DNA of 64,000 nucleotides from Eledone cirrhosa (Eukaryota). Positions 4,250-31,213 of this stretch are shown here, in pieces. Made by a program: the position numbers and the translations under genes. The notes below the pieces were generated by a model, which saw only the letters and a list, made by a program, of their open reading frames with translations, was not told the origin of the DNA and searched no databases. Position 1 is the first letter of the stretch; each line of letters opens with the position of its first letter. The stretch is from positions 290,718,001 to 290,782,000 of the forward strand of contig OZ024743.1 in NCBI GenBank assembly GCA_964016885.1, given 5' to 3'.

Positions 4250-6860
4250 ATTTTATTGCTGATAATCGTTTCTTCCAAACAGTTGTTTGGTTTCATCGGA
4301 GCATTGGCAAAGTTTAAACACAACACATAAATAAAACATTCCTATTGTACAGAACTTTCATACAGATACGTTGATGCTATTGCTGCTATCAATAGTGTCA
4401 TTTTTCAAAGTGAGTGAAGATGTTGTGGTCTGCAACAAAGGGTATATTAAAGATTATAAAAGAAGGTTACTCGCAAAGGAGGACATTAGTCGTACATATA
4501 GGCAGTAAGAATGCAAGGGTATTAAGCATATACATAATAATATGACAAATAATGCAGAGGTATTAAGCATATACAGCATAATATGGCAAAGATATCACGA
4601 AATATAGGGGTAAGAGGATGAACATATTAAGCAGTCAGGAATGCATGGGTAGGATATAAGGTGAAAGTTGAGAAGCATATTGTGTAATATACATAAACAA
4701 AGTTGATGCATGGGCTGAGAGAGGAGAAGATACATAATTAAATAAACAATCCAGGCAGAAGTACAGCTGCTGTGCAGTACAAAAAAGTGTTATGTAGTAT
4801 TAAGATATGTATATGTAGCGAGATAATTATATTTAAAACAGTTTCTATGTGAGTTTATGGTGGATGTGATGTGATAATTATTCTGGCAATGTTTAAATGC
4901 AGATGTGTTGTGAGTATTAATATTGAGGTTTCTTTTTCCATTTCATTGGTTATATTTAAGAAATATTTTAAAATAATATTTTAAATAGATACAATTATGG
5001 ATTGTATATTGCACTTATTATAAACGTGATTAAGGGTTAGACTTGTTCTGGAGTGATCTTTTTTATATAGTCAGATGTTAATCTTCCGAGCTGGTGTAGT
5101 GATGCCTAACAGTTTAAATTCAAAGAAGTAATTGGGGATTTTCACTACAGGGAGTTAATGGGAAAAGGGAGGAAATTGAAGATTTATTTATGTATTACAG
5201 AAAAATATATAATCTAGTGCTAGTTGTTTTTATATCCTATTAATTAAATTTCATGTGTTAATATACATTATATTATATTATAAGAGAATCCTTATATAAT
5301 GCTTTTTATTTTTTATATTTATTTCATATAATCTGTTTTTTATATAATATTTAAAGTCCCAATTGTCGACTACTCATTTATATATTAATTAAATGAATAG
5401 CATATTAGTAACGAAGATATTATAGTTATATTAAGTGGTGGTAAATGTATGTTTATTATTTATAGTTATTATTGAGTCTAGGATCGGAAATAAATGGGAG
5501 ATAAATGACGGAGTGAGTTGATACAAAAATGTGATGATGTGGGGAGAATTTATACTGATAAAACCCAGAAGTAAAGTGTTAACGGTGGCGAGGAATCTAT
5601 ATCTGACATTGTTATATATTCATGGCTAGGTTTGAAATTGTGGAAAGAATGTCGAACACATTTCTGACTTCTATTTAAAAGGTTTAGCTTAGAATAGACT
5701 ATAGTGCGAGACTCCAAAAGACAGAAGTTACAGAATATATTCGGTGGTTTATAAGAAGTGGCCCTATCTTTTAGTTCCCATTGTAGAGTATATGGTCTAT
5801 TTCTAGTTTTCAAAGAGAGTATGTAGGTAGATTATGATTTTTGAAAGTGTGAAGATGCGAGTTTATCTCGTCTTAAATCAGTTCAAGGTAGGACCAATAT
5901 ATATTTTCGAAATGTTACTTGTAGTGACGGTACAGGAGTAAATAATGTTTTTGATTAAGAAATTTTTTTCTCAAGGGGCAAGTTCTATTTGTTCTACAAT
6001 TACAGTTATTTTGGTTGTTTACTTGCTGGTTAATAGGGTGTGTAGATGCATGGTTGTTAGGAAGAGTATTAGAATAATTATGAGTATTATTCCTGTTGCT
6101 GTTAATATCATTAGTGTTATTGCGCTTGTTATTATTGTTACTAGAGGTCTCCAGTACTAAGTTGTTATGCAGGTTCTCCCTGTGTTGAGATTTAATCGCT
6201 TGGAAATATTTATTAATCTTCCTTTTATTAATACTAGCTATACGGTTCGCAATGTTAGGTGTGGTAGAGTAAGAGATTTTAATAGTATTTTTATTGATAA
6301 GATTATGGTATCCATGACCGACTAAGAAGTTATTTTCTTAAGTCGAGAAGAGACCCTTGGGCAAGTTGGTGGAAACATTTAAATTGAAAGAGGGATTGAA
6401 AATGTATTAGTTCTTCTATTTTTGTGATTATGTTTTGTAAGGTTAGTTGTAGTATTGTTTTTATTTATATTTTTTACTATTATTACTAGGATGATTGTTT
6501 TGGTGCGAGTTAACTTTGTTATTACCCTTTATACTAGAGTTAGAGTGGTCATTACTTTTATTACTTTTAATTTTATTCAGGGCCATATTGTGTGAAATAA
6601 TATTATTACTAGAAGATTTTTTAGGTAAAAATGTAATTTTATCTTTATGGTCTGAGCGAGCTAAAGCTTTATCATAGTATTGGGAATTTCCGTTAAATAT
6701 AGTTTTAGTATAAGATAGAGTGGTTATTCTATTAGATACACTACTACTATTATCAGTAATCTAGTTTTGTACTTATTTTTTATATCTTAATCATTTACAT
6801 TTTTAGTTCTTTATACTTTTATTACTGTTTATTATCTTCTATTATTGGATTATTGTTTTC
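4250..6860 (-). mobile_element. Degenerate Penelope-like element (RT C-terminus, GIY-YIG, long 3' UTR)
   Basis: Minus-strand translations YYDKALARS, FNPSFNLNVSTN, YHNLINKNTIKISYSTTPNIA, KNIIYSCTV..KIYIG..FKTR and CNFCLLE..LLNR. Homologous to the PLE at 16725-17640. HHR-like motif at 4257-4303. Confidence 0.75.
4257..4303 (-). ncRNA. Degenerate type I hammerhead ribozyme at a PLE 3' end
   Basis: Minus strand reads UGCU-CCGAUGA-aa-CCAAACA ac UGUUUGG-aa-GAAAC gauu AUC-AGCA, followed by AATAAA. Two core substitutions relative to consensus. Confidence 0.55.
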
Positions 6861-15604: not shown

Positions 15605-18490
15605 ACAAAGGAATTGTGGTAAGGAACCAGATGGACCATAACGCACCAGAGTACTCAATACTTAGGGTAGTAGAGTTTCGAAATAGGAAAAAGTATGACC
15701 CCTACGGCAGAGCTCAAGCCGTTTCGACGGTAATTTCTGGACTAAATTTGAATATTTAGCCTGGTGCATGAATAGCCGAACTGGTCAAGGGGGTACTTCC
15801 TTATATGGGAAGATTGTAGTTGTCAAGAGGATTGGTTAAAATTTGTTGTAAACACAAATAAGTCTATCATGGCATTTGGTGGGAGGTAGGAGTGACAGAA
15901 CTTGCCTGTAGAACAATGGGGGTGAGTGGAGCCGGTGAAGCGTTGAAAGTGATATCTATACAGCAGATTCTAAGGATCGTGTATAAAGTGGAGGAGGGAG
16001 GTTATAGAATAGGTAATTCGAATGAGAGAAGGAGACAATAAAAGATAATAGAAATAAATAAAAAAAATATACAGAATTAGATAGTGAGAAATTAATTTTT
16101 AAAAAAATGAGAATGCTATCTTACAATTACAGGTTAATAAGTTGAGAATAAAAAAAAATTGTAGAAATGGAGTAGTAACAAAACTGATACAAAATTAAAG
16201 GGGTCTAACACATCTGCTATAAGTAGTTAGTAAAAAGTATTCGGCCATTCTATCTTAAAATTGCAGAGGTGGGGGAACTGATGCTACAGAGGCCCGATGG
16301 GCTGCATCGGGGTAGGCGAAAGACGAAAAGCAGACTCAGAAGAAAATAGTGGGTGGAAGGAAATGATAGGATGAGACAGGGGGAAGAAGAAGACATAGAG
16401 GAAAATAAAAGAGATACATCTACCTATGTAAGCTGGTGTTTTCCATAAATTATTCGGCAAGTGGGGGGGTATGAGCCGTTGTCCACCCACTGGGGTCGTT
16501 ATGGGGTTTGAGGGCGAAGTAAATCCTATGCAATCTGTGTTTGCACGCGGTTAGCAGTTCGCCTTTCTTGGTTAGGAGTTGGTCCTTCGAAAACAGCATT
16601 TGTAATGTTTCCTCTGAGCATAAATTACACGGACGGGGTCCTCCCGTGTAAGAGTTAGCTCTGGACAGTAAGCTCCAACTGAGATTGTAGGTTATATTAT
16701 TATCTTGGAGGTTATCTGGAGGTTACCCTTAACCTAGAAAATGATCTGTACTACCCATACAGGAAACCAAACGACAACCTGCACTACATCCACCGCCGCT
16801 CTAACCATCCTAGAAATATCACCTATAACCTGGTTAAAAACATCTCCCTCCGCATATCTCGTTTGTCCGCTAATGAGCAGATATTCGACGAACACGCGCC
16901 CCATTACAACCAGGCCCTCAAGCGGAGTGGCTTCCGGGAGGAAATATCCTTTTATCAAGCTTCCCTTAGCGGAACAAGCAAGTTACACCGCAGCTACGCA
17001 ACTATCGTGGTTCAATCCTCCCCATAATGCCCAGGTGGCAACACCTATCGGGAAAATCTTCTTTAGGCTCCTCGAAAAACACCTCCCACTACAACACAGC
17101 TACCACAACATAATCAACAAAAACACCAGCAAACGCTTCTACCGCACCACACCTAACTTCGCACAAAACATCGTCTCCTCAAACAACAAAAAACTCAACC
17201 CTATGGAAGAAACAACCTAGACATCAGGGAGAGCCGAAGTTGTAACTGCCCTGATAGATCTACGTGCCCCCTCAACAACAAATGCCGAGAACGTAACCTG
17301 ATCTACCATTGCAACGTGAGGATGGACACCAACAAAGCTTTATAGGATTAACCGCGTGTGACTTCAAAACCTGGCTCTACCAACACTTTCTGAAACCCGG
17401 TCCGGCGACATGCCACTGCACTTTCGGGCCTCATATGTGACCTTCAAGATAATAATATAACCTACAATCTCACTTGGAGCTTACTGTCCAGAGCTAACTT
17501 TTATACGGGACGACGCCGTCCTTGTAACTTATGCTCGGAGGAAACATTACAAATTCTGTTTTCGAAGGACCAACTCCTAAACAAGAAAAGCGAACTGGTA
17601 ACCGCATGCAAACACAGATTGCGTAGGATTTACCTCACTCTCAAACTCCATAACGACCGGGTGGGTAGACAAGTGCTGATACCCCCCACCCACCCCACAC
17701 ACACACTTGCGAATAAGTTAGGGAAAACCCCAGCTTACATAGGTAGATGTATCTCTTTTCTTTTGCTCTATGTCTTCTTCCCCCTGTCTCATCCTATCAC
17801 CTCCTTCCACCCCTTATGTTCTTCCTCGTCTACTTTTTCCCCCTTCGCCTACCCCGATGCAGCCCATCGGGCCTCTGTAGCATCAGTTCCACCACTCCTG
17901 TAATTTTAAGATAGAATTGGCCGAATACGTTTCACTAACTACTTATAGCAGATGTGTTAGTCCCCTTTAATTTTGTATCAGTTTTGTTACTACTCCATTT
18001 CAACAATTTTTTTCTATTCTCAACCTATTAACCTTTAATTGTAAGATAGCATTGTCATTTCTTTAAAAATTAATTTCTCACTGTCTAATTCTATATATAT
18101 TTTTATTTCTTTCTATTATATTTTATTGTTTCCTACTCTCATTCAAATTACCTATTCTATAACCTCCCTCCTCCATTTCATACACTATCCTTTAGAATCT
18201 GCTGTATGCATATCATTTTCAACGCTTGACCGGCTCCACTAACCCCCCCCCCCCCTTGTTCTACAGGCAAGTTCAGCCACCCCTACCTCCCACCAAATGC
18301 CATGATAGACTTATTTGTGTTTACAACACATTTTAACCAATCCTCTTGACAACTACAATCTTCCCATATAAGGAAGTACCCCCTTGACAAGTTCGGCTAT
18401 TTATGCACCAGGCTAAAAATTCTAATTTAGTCCAGAAATAGACGTCTAAACGGCTTGAGCTCTGCCGTGGGGGTCATAGTTTTTTCCTAT
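15605..18490 (+). mobile_element. 5'-truncated Penelope-like element with an inverted upstream pseudo-LTR
   Basis: Body 16725-17640 encodes YRKPNDNLHYIHRRSNHP, WFNPPHN, CNC..CPLNNKC..NLIY and CNLCSEE..LLNKKSEL..CKH. 15683-16714 is an inverted copy of 17438-18490. Confidence 0.85.
15698..15794 (-). ncRNA. Hammerhead-like motif in the PLE pseudo-LTR (second copy 18378-18474, plus strand)
   Basis: ACCCC(C)-UUGACCA...GAAAC GGC uugagcucu GCC GUA GGGGU. Stems I and III pair well, but the CUGANGA core is altered. Confidence 0.5.
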
Positions 18491-22149: not shown

Positions 22150-23076
22150 ATTTAATGTGGCTAGTACATATCTTGAATTCAAACCAAGAAACATAGTATA
22201 TACATTTTGAGGAGATGTTTCGACTCACTGTCGGGTGGAACTTCTGGTCCAGACATGGTGTATTCCAAAGATTTAGATAAACCTGGACGAAATTCAACAA
22301 GAAGGTTTACACAACTTGCAACAATGAAGTGCCTGATGATGTCCGCTCTACCATCCTTGGATTCTTTGAATACCACCTTTCTACGTAGGAAAAATAGCGA
22401 GATGATTACAGAGAATTGTTGTAGTTAAAGATGGTCTTTCTTGGCGGAATTCAGAAGAACGGGATATCGTTTCGTACACCAAGAGTTGTAAGTCAAAAGC
22501 AATTTATGCATTCGAGATATACCTGTTTCAAGATCCGATCCAGTTATCTCCTGCAGAGAAGAACTCTTTAAGATGAATATGTATTTTTTCTTATTCGAAT
22601 GTACATTCGACTCTTGTCATCAGAAGCAATTAAGGCACCTTATCATGATTTGCTATTCATGCGCCAACTGATGAATTATCATGATATTGATCCAGAAATC
22701 AGTAAGGCTGCTGCGAAGGTCTTTCCAACCATCTCTGGTACCTAGCTCCCGAAACTGTGACTCTTTCCATATTTGATTACAATATTCCAACAGAAGTTAA
22801 GGCAAATATTGCTCAGGTTATGCTGGAAGCAGAGAAAGGTGAAGAAAATGAAGAAACAGAAATCAATTGAAGGGGTACATTTTGCACCAAAATGAATTTT
22901 TTTCCTATACAAACACCTAGTTTTAGATTTTTGTTACTTTCTTCACGAGATTTTCTATCACCACCGATTTCCTCGACAAAGACGCTTCAAGATGGAAGGA
23001 TGATCCTGGTTACAAATGTGGACTTGAAAAACTTGAGAAGACAGTTGTGGTGAATGATGTTGCAGAAAGAGATGTC
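22150..23076 (+). pseudogene. DNA-transposase remnant (hAT/hATm-like)
   Basis: Frameshifted motifs GTSGPD, KAIYAFEIYLF, HLWYLAPETVTLSIFD and VVNDVAERDV. Truncated by the element starting at 23077. Confidence 0.6.
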
Positions 23077-23618
23077 GAGGCGTGTTTGCACAATTGCAAT
23101 CGAATCGAATGTTATTATTAATATTCGAAAAACTCAGATTACCTTTATTGTATTCAGCCCAGGTAGAGCGAACATTTTCTCTTATATTTGAATTTGGCAA
23201 AGCCGGCCATTTATCGGTCGTATACAGGAACTGACTGGTCAGTCTGCTGATATGCATATGTAGCTGATCATTGGATCTGCTAATATGCAGATATGACTGA
23301 TCAGCCAGTCTGCTAATATGCAAATCAGACCGATAAGTCACTGTGTATTTTTGAAAATAGAATATATTTTCACTAGCTCTGACAGTTTGGCAGGTGAACT
23401 GTGAGCTGTACTGATGAAGGGTGATGCCCAGAAACGTTAGTGTCTGCAGTTCTGTTTGCATTCCAACACAAGAGCAAGAATGAACGGCTCATTCTACTGA
23501 CACGGATATACAATTGAGGCTTGTTTGCATAATTGCAAACGAATCGAATGTTATTATTGATATTCCAAAAACTCAGATTACATTTATTGTATTCAGCCAT
23601 GTAGAGCGAACATTTTCT
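23077..23618 (+). mobile_element. Non-coding retrozyme-like element, family 1 (1.2-mer of a ~440 bp unit containing an HHR)
   Basis: ~100 bp direct repeats 23077-23180 / 23516-23618; HHR at 23403-23452; second copy at 30212-30713 on the minus strand. Confidence 0.8.
23403..23452 (+). ncRNA. Type I hammerhead ribozyme with intact core
   Basis: Stem I GAGCUGUA/UGCAGUUC; CUGAUGA; stem II GGGU gau GCCC; GAAA; stem III CG uuag UG; cleavage triplet GUC (predicted cut after 23444). Confidence 0.88.
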
Positions 23619-23769
23619 TTTATATATATGTATTAGAAAGTGAGGTCTTTTTTACAAAATAAAAAATAACCGACGTGTCCTACACGAGTGAAAGTATAAA
23701 GAAAACAAGATGAAATCGAAAATGCAACTGGAGTCTTATTTTATTTTAAAAAAATATATATATTTATTT

Positions 23770-24510: not shown

Positions 24511-25709
24511 TACTAGTATATTAACCCGGCGTTGTTCGGGGTTTGAAATTATGCTAAGAATATACAGCAGAACATTATTTGTCCCCAACCTATCAAAATA
24601 AGCAGAAATCTTCAATAATTAATCCAAACGAAACATCATCATCATCATCGTCGTCGTTTAACGTCCATCGTCCACCAAAGCATGGATTTGGACGAGAATT
24701 TTCCCACTTGACGCAAGATTGGTTGTCTTGCTCGTATGGGACTGTCTGGCGGGTTTTCTACGGCTGGATGCCCTTCCTAACACCAACCACGTTTACAGTG
24801 TGGACTGGCAGGTTTTTACTATGTTACCTACACGGCCACATTACAGCGTCGGCTGTGTGTTTTTTTTTTGTGGTGACACCTACACGACCTCATTTATTTC
24901 GGACTGGATGTTGAGGTACCAACATAACTTTACATCGAAAGGGGTGGTGTGGATGGGGTGGGGATAGTGGGACGGGGGTGTATTTTGGTAAGAGGTGCCT
25001 ACTGACTGTAGGTTTCGCTTTGCACTTAGGCAAGGCGGGTCTTCTGTTTTACTGCGTAGCGCCAAAGATCTCGGTCCAGTGACATTGTCTTGGTTAGGTG
25101 TAAGTGTGTGAGGTCGGAATTTATCAAGTCGTTCCAGGTTTTTCTGGGTCTGCCTACTCCGTGGATGCCGTCTATTGTCATCGCCCTGCACTCTTTTATA
25201 CAGCTGTCTGCTTTCATGCGCATCACGTGACCATACCAACGTAGTCTTCTCTCGAGTAAACAGCATTTGATCCCTCTTATTCCTAATTTCTCACTTAGTT
25301 CATTCATGCTTTGCCGTTCAGGTATATTACTATTACACATCCGAATATTTAGTGCAATCTGTGTACACATAAAACTATGTTGATAATGAAGGAAAACACT
25401 GAACAGGATGTAGTTATACAAATGATTAATAAGGATTATCAATAAAATTGGTTATCTCCCTTTTTCTATAAGGATCGTCAATAAAATTGGTTATCTCCAT
25501 TACATCAATTGTGCTACCTATAATTTTGATATCGATTTTTTATTGCTCAACGTGGGTCAATCGGAAAAAATGTGTGTGATGTGAACATACTAGCGCCCTG
25601 TGCAACGTGCACAGAACATTTGGTCAAATTCGGTTGGTAATTGTAAAAGCCTTAGGTATCCAAAATTGTACACGGACACACACACATCCTCGCTATTATA
25701 TATATAAAG

Positions 25710-25712
<3 letters not shown>
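24511..25712. mobile_element. Non-autonomous Helitron-like element interrupted by an RTE
   Basis: ACTAG plus a CCCGGCGTTGTTCGGG hairpin at one end, and acggacacacacacat..tattatatatataaagat at the other. Confidence 0.4.
24634..25345 (-). mobile_element. RTE-clade LINE 3' fragment with 3' UTR and (TGA)n tail
   Basis: ERRLRWYGHVMRM...GVGRPRKTWNDLI..DRDLWR; the tail reads catcatcatcat on the plus strand. Confidence 0.85.
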
Positions 25713-25764
<52 letters not shown>

Positions 25765-28700
25765 CAGGGAGGAGAAACCGAGAGTAATAAAACTTATCAA
25801 TCCAACTAGTGCAGAACTAACACCCAACCTTTTCAACTTACTCTCTAAAGGTCTTAAATTCACACCGACCCCACTACATCCTAACTACTATGAAATGAAG
25901 GAAGACCTCACAGACTTCTGTAGAAAGTTACGACTCAGTGATGAACTATTCGACCAGTACAATGAGGATGAATCATTAGCCATAAATAGAAGCAATTACA
26001 CCCAATCAAAAGGTAGAAATAAAACCCTGGACGAATTCTGTGAACACATCACAAACTTCCCTTACCAACACTTGCACAGACAAAAACACAAGCCAAACGT
26101 CAACAAGAAAGAATGGGAAGAATTAAATAGATTAAAAACCGACAGAACCATTACAATTAAAGAGGCTGATAAAGGGAGTACAGTAGTCCTAATGGAGACA
26201 GAATTCTATATCAACTTAGCGCTCTCCACTTTGGAAAACGAAACATACTACGAAAAGGCTGAACACTACAATCAACAGAAAATTATGAGAAACCTAAAAA
26301 CTCTGATCAACCAATACAAAGAAGGACTCACTAACAAGGAATTCAGCTTCATCACACACTTCACAAGTAAATCCAGCCTTTTATACGGTATCTCTAAAGT
26401 ACATAAAAGCGAATTAATAAGTAAGGCATGCAAGGAAGCCACAGACATAGTCATCAATGTCCCCTCAACCAATGATCTCAAATTAAGACCTATAATAGCA
26501 GGCCCTGCATGCGAAACCCACCGCCTTAGCAACTTCATGTATACCCTTCTCAAGCCTTTTCTCAAACACATCAACAGCTATATAAGAGACGACCTAGATA
26601 TGCTGAATCACCTCCCTAATATGCCCCTTTCTGAACAAACCCTACTAGTGACTTTCGATGTAGTCAACCTATACTCCAACATCTCCCACAACCTAGGAAT
26701 AGAAGCTATCCAATTATGGCTGGATAATTGAACTCCCACAACGCATCAAAAAATAATTCGTGATAGAGGGACTCAAATTTATCTTGGAGAACAATTACTT
26801 CGTTTTCAATAACAAACACTACAGGCAGAAATCTGGTACCGCTATGGGAACGAAAACAGCACCCACTTATGCTAACCTAGTCATGGGATACCTGGAAATC
26901 ACCCTCTACACTAAAGTCCTAAACAAATTTGGAAACACTCTCCACTTATACATAGAAAGGAACTGGAATCGATATCTAGATGACTGCTACATCCTTTGGC
27001 ACGAAAACATCGAGAAACTTAAAGAATTCCACACCCTTATAAATGGGCTCAACACGAATATTAACTTCACGATGGAATACAGCCATCAACAACTCCCCTT
27101 CCTCGACATCCTCATTAAGATCCATAAGAAAAAATAGAAACAGACATATACTACAAGCCCACAGATTCCAAGCAATATCTTCCTTTCAACTCTTGCCACC
27201 CTAGACACGTTAAAATTAATATTCACTACAACTTAGCCAACAGACTCTGTACTATAGTCTCCAATAAAAACACCTGCTACTTACGGCTACAAGAACTAAA
27301 GGACACACTCATAGGCAGGGACTACCCTGCATCACTAATTGACAATGGAATCCAACGTGACCTAAAACTAAGTACCCAGAACCTTAGACACCCTAAAGTA
27401 AATCAACCGAAACTAAAAGCTCTTCCATACATCTCCACACACAACCCCCTCAACAATGAGGCCTTTGAGACCATCCTCCAGAACATCCCTGTGTTGAAAA
27501 AGGACCATAGAATGAACCAAATCCTACGAACACACGATATCATAAAGAGCAAAAGAAATCTAAGTCAATGAAAAACATCCTAACACATGCCAAAGTACTG
27601 CCAACCACAACAACGAAACCCACAGTAAAAAAAAATGCGATAGACCCAACTGTGGCATATGCATCAACCTAATAGAGGGTTCGGAATTATATTTCAAAGA
27701 AGGAAACGTTTTATAGTAAAACACAATTTCACATGCGCATCGGAAAATCTAATATATGTATTAACTTGCTCAGGTTGTCGAGAACAATACATAGGCCAGA
27801 CCAAACACAGCCTCCGCCAACGCATGACTGTCCATAGATCCCAAATTAAAATACGAGGATACAGGAAATTACCACTGAGTGAACACATTGATACCTGTGC
27901 CGCCCAAGAACATCACAACTTCAGAATCTTTCCCCTCTACAAATTTAAAGATAATGCCACCCAGACACAGCGCATCAGCAAGGAATGTTACTTTATTAAT
28001 AAATATGGACCCCGTCTAAACACATCTCCCTAAGACGAACCCACAACATACACACGTACACATACATACCTACATCAGCATACATCTCTATCCACATATA
28101 AACACAATGACATTCGTAAACACACATGTTCTATGGTGCAACACAAATATACACAAATTTGCTTACCTTTTGATGTCTATAGATATAAACGTGCCGACAC
28201 ACATACATACATAAACGCAAACATGCACTGCACACTGATGGGCACATACATATTTGTACACATGTATTCCAATACGGCAAGGCCTAATGGATTCCCCTTG
28301 CAGTACGTATAATCTGGACACTCACACACACCTTGGTATTATGCCAATACTATATATCATTTCACACCTTTTATTATTGAGGTTGTTGATGTTCTATTGA
28401 GAGAATTTTTTTTACTGAAAATATCGAATAATGTACACCATTTTACCAGTATCACAAAAATAAATACTGGTCCACCCACACACACACACACATATATACA
28501 CACACACACATACACACGCGTACATTAACATACAAAGAGACATACACACACACACACACACACACTTCTCCGTATAAGACAAGAGCTGAAAAATATCTTT
28601 TAACATGTTAACATATCCCCCACACACTTACAGACACATTCCTACTGACCATCCCTCTACCACGAATTTCTCTGCTACACACACACAAACACACACACAC

Positions 28701-29672: not shown

Positions 29673-30211
29673 ATGATAAGGAATAAGGATTTAGTATTGC
29701 ATCATACCATATTTAATAACATATTACAATATGTTTATCTATCAATCAGCTCGAGGCAAGATCTATTATAGATCGAATCTGACTCTGTAATCGAAAGGTC
29801 ATCAGTTATGTTTAGTGTATGGGTTCGCCTCCCATTCTAAGTGTTCAAACCTTCATATTAGCTATCTACAGCAAATATTAGCATCCTGTTATTATAGGCC
29901 TTTCCAATGGCTCAGTTATCCCATCATCATTATCATTATTTTATCATCTGCGTGGAATTTGTCTGTCATTCCGTCTAGCTGCCGTGTGCATTCAGCAGTG
30001 GGTGTTGTTACATTGTGGTTTACTGCTAGATTTAATATTCCTATACCACTGATATTTCCACATATACACACACATACATACAGATACATATACACAAACA
30101 CATATTAAAACACACACATGCCCATATACACACATACATACAGGTACATTCGTGCACATACGCAAACACGCACATATACATGCACATACATATATATATA
30201 TATATATATAT

Positions 30212-30713
30212 AATAAATGTAATCTGAGTTTTTCGAATATTTATAAGAACATTCGTTTCATTTGCAATTATGCAAACACACCTCATTTTTAAAGCCATGC
30301 CAATAGAATAAACATTGTTCTTGTGTTGGCCTGTAAACAGAACTGCAGACACTAATGTTTCTGGGTATCAGCTTTGATCAGTACAATTCACTGCTCCCCT
30401 GCCGACTGTCAGAGCTAGTGAAAATATATGCTATTTTCTAAAATATACAGTGACAGAAGGCCTGATTTGCATATTAGCAGACTGGCTGATCAGTCAGATC
30501 TGCATATTAGCAGATCCACTGATCAGCTAGATTTGCATATCAGCAAACTGGCCAGGCTGCTTTCTGTATACGAGCGGTAAATGGCCGGCTTTGCCCTAAT
30601 TAAATAATTAAAAATTTGTGCGCTCTACATGGCTGAATACAATAAATGTAATCTGAGTTTTTCGAATATTAATAATAACATTCGATTCATGTGCAATTAT
30701 GCAAACAAGCCTC
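30212..30713 (-). mobile_element. Retrozyme-like element, family 1, copy 2 (HHR 30340-30389, core CUGAUCA)
   Basis: Reverse-complement homolog of 23077-23618. Direct repeats start at 30212 and 30641 (period ~430). Confidence 0.8.
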
Positions 30714-30724
30714 ATTCTTGGCCT

Positions 30725-30960
30725 TGTGTACGGGAGCCTCCCAAAAGTAAGATGAGACTGACGTTAGCTGGACATGCTCACCGACATTCAGAGTTGACAC
30801 TGCATTCAGTGCTCCTGTGGGAGCCACTGCATGGACATACTGGAAGAGGAACACCGAGGTTAACATATGTTGATGCCCTGGTCGCTTGGAGACTCAGGAC
30901 ATAGCAGCGATAATGAGGGACAGAGAGTACTCGTCCATGGTTCTCGAGGATTTTACCCGC
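30725..30960 (+). mobile_element. RTE-like LINE 3' fragment
   Basis: RLTLAGHAHRH..VLLWEP..GRGTPRLTYVDAL. Confidence 0.7.
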
Positions 30961-31091: not shown

Positions 31092-31213
31092 ATATAGAAA
31101 AGACTTCCACAGGAAGAGAACTCTTTTATTCGGGATAAATCATCAGGAAGCCGACTTCCTGATGACTTCTCGTGTATGAAGCAGTTCTAGTCATGTAGAA
31201 GCCTTTTCTATAT
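31092..31213. repeat. Imperfect hairpin with CTGATGA on both arms
   Basis: atatagaaaagacttc..tcatcaggaag ccga cttcctgatga..gaagccttttctatat. Confidence 0.6.

Follow-up and report, generated by a model that had tools for sequence, protein, structure and literature searches.

Non-LTR retrozymes of animals are described, in the parts of the two reports open to us (PMC7229834; bioRxiv 10.64898/2026.07.22.740005), as non-coding units that span a few hundred bp, carry a type I hammerhead ribozyme, are present in thousands of copies without an LTR, have two ribozymes at some loci and share their genomes with Penelope elements (PLEs). The class has been linked to PLEs (bioRxiv 10.64898/2026.07.22.740005), and its insertion from a circular template has been proposed, not shown, as far as the consulted part of PMC7229834 goes. 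The EN+ Neptune-type PLEs and their non-autonomous derivatives are characterised, in the sections available to us, by 5′ truncation, partial tandems, an inverted upstream arm, a tail of 30-40 nt at one end, microsatellite targets and a ribozyme upstream of two internal starts (PMC8557442; PMC11167929). The role of the hammerhead in PLEs is stated there to be unclear (PMC8557442), and in the single in vitro study, on an anole PLE, none of the reads had its end at the cut site and cleavage was unnecessary, according to the part of PMC11167929 that we could consult. Short stems III with palindromic loops, reported to act as dimers, are found in type I hammerheads of amphibian satellite DNA and of PLE pLTRs (PMC4209133; PMC6765202, both in part). 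Within the literature searched, which leaves out most subscription journals and the supplements, neither a cephalopod retrozyme nor genomic 5′ ends that coincide with a hammerhead cut are the subject of any paper; cephalopod families may be listed in supplements to the papers cited here.

The family described here, from the genome of Eledone cirrhosa (3.0 Gb), is of this known kind, a non-LTR retrozyme or non-autonomous PLE. It was followed up from a window of 64,000 nucleotides (contig OZ024743.1, positions 290,718,001 to 290,782,000 of the forward strand). Its unit has a period of 439 bp, where the earlier note had given about 440 bp, and a GC content of 39%; non-coding, with a type I hammerhead and many copies, it lies within the size and composition range of non-LTR retrozymes (about 150-450 bp, less than 50% GC). 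The longest ATG frames have 75-77 codons. Within the unit there is no RT or GIY-YIG open reading frame, and the element is therefore non-autonomous; on neither of its strands is there a pol III B box. The animal retrozymes of PMC7229834 and bioRxiv 10.64898/2026.07.22.740005, as far as their accessible parts go, differ in that this family consists of dispersed truncated arms instead of long arrays, is without clean copies of at least two laps, shows no target duplication and has an A.A pair at the base of stem II. Their circles have been demonstrated, while this family is known from genomic copies alone. The Neptune-type PLEs of PMC8557442 and PMC11167929, again in their consulted parts, differ from a family without an RT or GIY-YIG gene, in which the whole element is the repeat unit and for which no parent was found. 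In the majority sequence, a 77-codon ATG frame starts at unit position 426 (window 23502), 57 nt past the cut, and spans both 3′ ends; its position resembles that of the ORF start of the anole PLE, which may be chance. At many loci, a SINE-like repeat of about 185 bp has inserted recurrently into the TTATTA hairpin of the unit (positions 37-55).

The family comprises thousands of dispersed copies. The majority ribozyme 44-mer is present in 760 exact genomic copies and a 23-mer near the 3′ end in 4,434, and the total is about 8,000 arms, extrapolated from a match rate of 82 in 148. Mapping of 214 loci gave 325 distinct arms, 296 of them at least 60 nt long; the family 3′ end is present in 265 of these 296. 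Median divergence from the family majority is 4% (208 arms). Three contig sequencing runs from one sample, of unrecorded kind, contain both the family and its tandem joint and are not informative on expression.

Copy 1 (23077-23626, plus strand) is a 5′-truncated single-arm insertion of 1.25 units, 94% identical to the family majority. Its 3′ end is the long one, which includes the tail, and it shows no target duplication. Unit numbering starts at 23077, which places the predicted cut after unit position 368. The upstream terminal repeat (23077-23187, plus strand, unit positions 1-111) contains two hairpins, at about 23083-23101 and 23105-23128 (fold z −2.9 for 23077-23135). It is followed by a self-complementary tandem repeat of 33 bp (23243-23322, plus strand, 2.4 copies), whose copy number varies between family copies and which is absent from the sister family described below. 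The downstream terminal repeat (23516-23626, plus strand) is succeeded by TA. The two terminal repeats are 92% identical over 111 bp, so the redundancy noticed earlier is present, slightly longer than the 100 bp suggested and ending at about 23626 instead of 23618. Within the downstream repeat lie two putative reverse-transcription starts, at about 23587-23592 and at about 23626; the ~35 nt between them are a PLE-type tail. This Penelope signature, visible in the 3′ end and in the repeat length, was overlooked in the earlier note. At its 5′ end copy 1 joins a degraded DNA-transposase-like coding remnant outside the element (22500-23076, plus strand, with a VVNDVAER motif), which we take to be hAT-like and which is repeated in contigs of the sequencing runs.

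The hammerhead of copy 1 (23403-23452, plus strand) is of type I and, as the earlier note had it, intact, with an open stem I and three helices around the core. Stem I pairs 23403-23410 with 23445-23452 in eight base pairs, two of them G.U; the core consists of CUGAUGA (23411-23417), GAAA (23431-23434) and the GUC triplet (23442-23444), corresponding to the CUGANGA, GAAA and NUH of type I hammerheads, and the predicted cut is after C23444. Stem III is short, with a wobble-palindromic UUAG loop. Beyond a 2-nt bulge, stem I is extended by seven base pairs (23394-23459, plus strand), one of which is lost in copy 1 by an A to T change at 23400. A scan of both window strands allowing one core mismatch gave three matches; a stem I of 8 bp is present in the two family copies and lacking in the third match. 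The core is intact in 52 of 66 copies sampled independently of the ribozyme. At the base of stem II, copy 1 and the family majority have A.A in place of the usual G10.1-C11.1 pair. The axolotl HHR_Amex2 cleaves despite lacking this closing pair, having U.U there (PMC7229834, consulted in part). The A.A closure is probably also why both copies escape Rfam, which gave no hammerhead match at E ≤ 1 for the window or at E ≤ 10 for 221 bp; the only Rfam matches in the window are microsatellite-driven miRNA matches. Genome-wide, the model RF00163 has 18 matches, all from another, canonical type I hammerhead family (L101-L118), which likewise has (TA)n at its end, with or without a tail, as well as inverted arms, and in which no PLE open reading frame was found within 1.5 kb.

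The stem III of the family has a predicted self-duplex of −8.8 kcal/mol and in this resembles the dimer-dependent hammerheads of PMC4209133 and PMC6765202; in the consulted parts of those papers stem I is shorter than the 8 bp plus extension found here, where activity is predicted only. As a monomer, the ribozyme is predicted to misfold, both in the majority sequence and in copy 1 (stem III probability 0). Copy 1 carries minority substitutions at 23400, 23426 (G) and 23436 (G), the last of which weakens the predicted self-duplex from −8.8 to −2.0 kcal/mol. An A at 23426 would, we assume, make a tertiary contact with stem I. Copy 1 had been put forward as the best candidate for an active ribozyme, which holds within the window only: elsewhere in the genome the exact majority 44-mer is found, whereas copy 1 has these three changes, and one ribozyme alone cannot release a monomer. 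With its single ribozyme it also lies outside the two-unit definition of an 'active' element of Li, Clavereau and Pollet (2026; bioRxiv 10.64898/2026.07.22.740005, in the part seen). The class itself is known, and copy 1 represents it as a decayed daughter of the ordinary sort that bears a single ribozyme.

Copy 2 (30208-30733, minus strand) contains 1.18 units, a terminal repeat of 77-83 bp and a short 3′ end that enters (TA)n. A second copy of 1.2 units had been placed at 30212-30713; it is real, with 84% identity to copy 1 (from 30713 to 30208), lies on the minus strand and has about 20 further bases upstream. These (30714-30733) match unit positions 390-410 and are joined across a deletion through ATGAGG microhomology. 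The GAGG boundary proposed as common to both copies is thus passed by copy 2, and five of 257 arms end there, against 5.1 expected. Like copy 1, copy 2 lacks a second ribozyme, and its own (30340-30389, minus strand) is damaged in core and stem II, as had been seen: the core reads CUGAUCA (G8C) and stem II is broken. The G8C change is reported to abolish cleavage (PMC11167929, in part). Other elements are present in the window. At 31146-31200, another hammerhead-like family occupies both strands of an inverted junction, a cleaner relative being present in L271 and L354. A different type of GIY-YIG PLE, presumably Naiad-like, has left remnants of its frames at 5915-6337 and 16738-17903.

Differences between copies 1 and 2 had been read as preserving base pairs. 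They are one-sided transitions, and among 30 distinct copies of the family none of 22 pairs is changed on both sides, with a covariation score at shuffle level. The informative comparison is with an older sister family, represented by 20 loci (L353-L372, at about 1280-1700; 1,253 first-look candidates), which is colinear with the main family over the whole unit (score 209 against 82 ± 8 in 100 shuffles). Judged by eye, its unit measures about 365 nt, and its two 3′ ends are those of the main family. The sister hammerhead lies at the same place, with a stem I that is rewritten yet paired, a G-C stem II and a palindromic stem III. Its core reads UUGAUAA, with U3 in 16 and A8 in 19 of the 20 loci; U3-A8 is a published PLE variant (PMC4209133, in part). 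Between the two families, three of six stem I pairs and C3-G8 are changed on both sides, as compared by eye on two majority sequences. To judge from this comparison of sequences, the ribozyme is under selection: in the sister family its position in the unit is kept, stem I is rewritten but still pairs, the core has U3-A8, and stem III is again palindromic.

The insertions have the anatomy of PLEs. The 3′ ends of 265 arms fall into two groups about 35 nt apart, 137 at unit positions 63-78 and 113 at 94-118, with seven between and eight at 55-60; 30 loci in this sample had been chosen on the long end. The end is adjoined by (TA)3 or longer in 191 of the 265 arms. Head-to-head arms with their 3′ ends outward are present at 43 of 69 loci chosen solely on the 23-mer. 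A short end is combined with a long one in 72 of 81 arm pairs with family ends, where 40.5 would be expected; 34 other pairs were left out because an end was broken. Thus 5′ truncation, partial tandems, an inverted upstream arm, a tail at one end and microsatellite targets are all found, matching the published marks of PLEs (PMC8557442); two internal starts, a tail and two-strand cutting have also been described for PLEs (PMC11167929, like the former in part). The family is likely to be mobilised in trans by PLE enzymes, probably of the Neptune clade, a label that rests on the CxxC linker and the (TA)n bias as given in the accessible part of PMC8557442, not on a tree. GIY-YIG PLEs are abundant in the genome, among 16,277 RT candidates. 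Two of their families, a young one of 784 aa and a second of an age similar to that of the element, were compared with the unit; they have no sequence in common with it, and no canonical ribozyme in their 3′ region.

The unit might instead be the pLTR of an autonomous PLE with truncated ends, as similar ribozymes are present in PLE pLTRs (PMC4209133, in part). Long arms, however, run in register into the unit and never into an open reading frame, and the PLE coding sequence found near loci comes from several unrelated families. Some arms are joined directly, or almost so, to truncated PLE coding arms (L269 at ~2050, L270 at ~1690, L333 at ~1610), possibly by co-insertion or template switching. 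Direct junctions were considered as a guide to the partner and rejected, as three different families are involved in L269, L270 and L272; that of L333 was set aside for its 60-nt linker. The young PLE family has many near-identical RT/GIY-YIG frames of 784 aa (L091: 5299-6663 and 6597-8948), in which an upstream 455-codon frame without a Pfam match overlaps the RT frame in the -1 frame. Its copies also occur in tandem 4.7 kb apart, window 25580-28470 is a broken copy, and no canonical hammerhead was seen in it.

The 5′ ends of the arms are scattered over the unit and peak at position 369, the base that directly follows GUC. Of 257 arms, six end exactly there, where the local rate would predict 0.9, and 11 end at 367-369 (2.5 expected), the top 5-nt window of the unit; the cut site was predicted by the fold, and the peak had been noticed in the arm list before the test. 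This differs from the anole PLE, where reads ending at the cut site were absent in the consulted part of PMC11167929. A second cluster of 5′ ends is located at 381-386, the end of the extended stem I (12 against 3.9 expected). Genome-wide, patterns demanding three foreign bases upstream gave 51 matches at 369; the control positions 374 and 354 had 24 and 16 (P 0.002 and 2e-5). Thirty of the 51 were inspected, inspection covering the matches at 369 only; 25 scored as truncations, or 23 by eye, as two look like a deletion or short duplication. A further control gave 61 matches, above the 51 of the test, 42 of which read as one 3-nt deletion variant. These 42 loci have one common deletion in stem III, and six others read as a stem II deletion; both may be recurrent hairpin deletions or small subfamilies. 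The same cut-site pattern had no matches in the sister family, which is old and gives the test little power.

The pile-up suggests that the RNA cut itself in the animal, and the family statistics may be taken as a base-exact hint of cleavage in vivo. Were the ribozyme instead a dead passenger, the peak would be an artefact of folding or microhomology; the monomer fold is indeed predicted to be inactive, and a CTGCAG palindrome at unit positions 368-373 joins some arm pairs (L054). Against this, the arms that end exactly at 369 begin past the first C of the palindrome, the peak persists when L054 is left out, nine arms remain against 2.45 expected (P 1e-3) when the two palindrome-joined arms are removed, and the sister family retains the ribozyme with compensatory changes. 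Together with the pLTR reading, we regard this as extremely improbable.

Reverse transcription past one unit, as the earlier note proposed, is borne out. Sixteen of 106 arms chosen only on their 3′ end are longer than the unit, and the genome contains 271 two-lap spacings, a few of them from an unrelated satellite, and 64 two-ribozyme spacings; no long tandem array was found genome-wide. The template had been given as circular or tandem RNA, and of the two a linear tandem fits better. In a classical retrozyme cycle, both ribozymes of a dimer would cut, a host ligase would close the 439-nt monomer, a PLE would copy the circle for more than one lap, and short copies would be unligated monomers. 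Circles of mussel, coral and axolotl retrozymes have been demonstrated (PMC7229834, in part). Cut-site junctions in the arms that pass through are seamless (one indel in 237), and a circular monomer is predicted to be highly paired, at −167 kcal/mol (z −12, 40 shuffles), with a large contribution from the 33-bp repeats. Alleles of subfamilies agree between laps at 347 of 435 sites, where 255 would be expected. Of the rare variants, 33 occur in both laps (6.6 expected; 629 are unshared), with no consistent fixed difference between upstream and downstream laps. Because laps share alleles and rare variants in this way, a monomer-to-multimer step, by circle or gene conversion, must, on the evidence of the copies, have acted at times; a circle-like step explains the sharing more simply than fixed tandem masters.

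The lengths of the arms, however, weigh against a circle as the usual template. Five arms (L033, L214, L284, L288 and L307) are exactly 582 nt long, which takes them from the cut site to the short end with one intact ribozyme in between; they end at the cut site on the second lap and count against a circle, since a closed circle offers no end at that point. On the 5′ side of the upstream ribozyme, stops are about three times as frequent on the second lap as on the first: 25/1684 against 27/6250 at unit positions 297-366 and 13/1056 against 51/14249 at 150-296. A hard length cap near position 300, suggested by the long copies mapped first, was rejected, as 5′ ends continue to 137. Second-lap stops are not raised at 372-439; they are raised at 1-72 (10/1567 against 13/5362, P 0.02), the pattern that strand displacement on a circle would give. 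None of the 33 arms at risk is a clean two-lap copy, where 10.1 were expected, in a test that omitted L023 (double insertion), L206 (segmental copy) and L274 (DNA duplication). The ten triple spacings of the genome are seven of a 54-bp satellite and three of the family, none of them clean, against about 11 expected. L273 and L275 are interrupted, and L274, a candidate 2.5-lap product, was rejected: two of its laps are near-identical and the third differs, as after a later DNA duplication. Altogether, we consider the classical cycle rather unlikely as an account of the family, and a linear partial-tandem template is probably the main route.

The stops at the cut site on both laps would also be accounted for by template jumping, in which the enzyme runs off the 5′ end of a fully cut linear monomer and sometimes jumps to a 3′ end, either that of the monomer just copied or that of a different one, leaving seamless laps; the few whole-haplotype swaps between laps (L014, L051 and L251) are in line with it. 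However, only nine first-lap stops fall at unit positions 367-371 among about 90 arms at risk, and therefore most runs pass through; added bases are absent at the junction, and the swap of L251 is not at the cut site. This reading we hold to be very unlikely.

On balance we favour, with some confidence, a model in which the 439-bp repeat is copied in trans by a PLE enzyme, mostly from linear partial-tandem RNA of which a minority would be cut by the ribozyme beforehand. A locus of 1.5-2 units with two ribozymes would be transcribed, and the two weak ribozymes may then pair through their palindromic stems III and cut only some of the molecules. The PLE enzyme would nick both strands of a TA-rich site, with reverse transcription beginning inside the RNA from one start per strand. 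Copying would end at random, at the 5′ end of the transcript or at a ribozyme-cut end, and the arms would be joined 5′ to 5′ or to the flank. The terminal redundancy of copies 1 and 2 would then result simply from copying that went on for more than one unit.

The value of the family lies in its statistics: they hint at cleavage in vivo, and they offer, through copy length, a test that weighs against the circle as main template. To our mind it is evenly balanced whether the insertion scars preserve a fossil trace of the ribozyme acting in the germ line, their 5′ ends marking the hammerhead cut to the base, and the element spread mainly as a linear tandem RNA cut in part and copied from one start on each strand of a single break, not by rolling circle. 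If true, the same genome-only test would be applicable to any retrozyme or PLE family.
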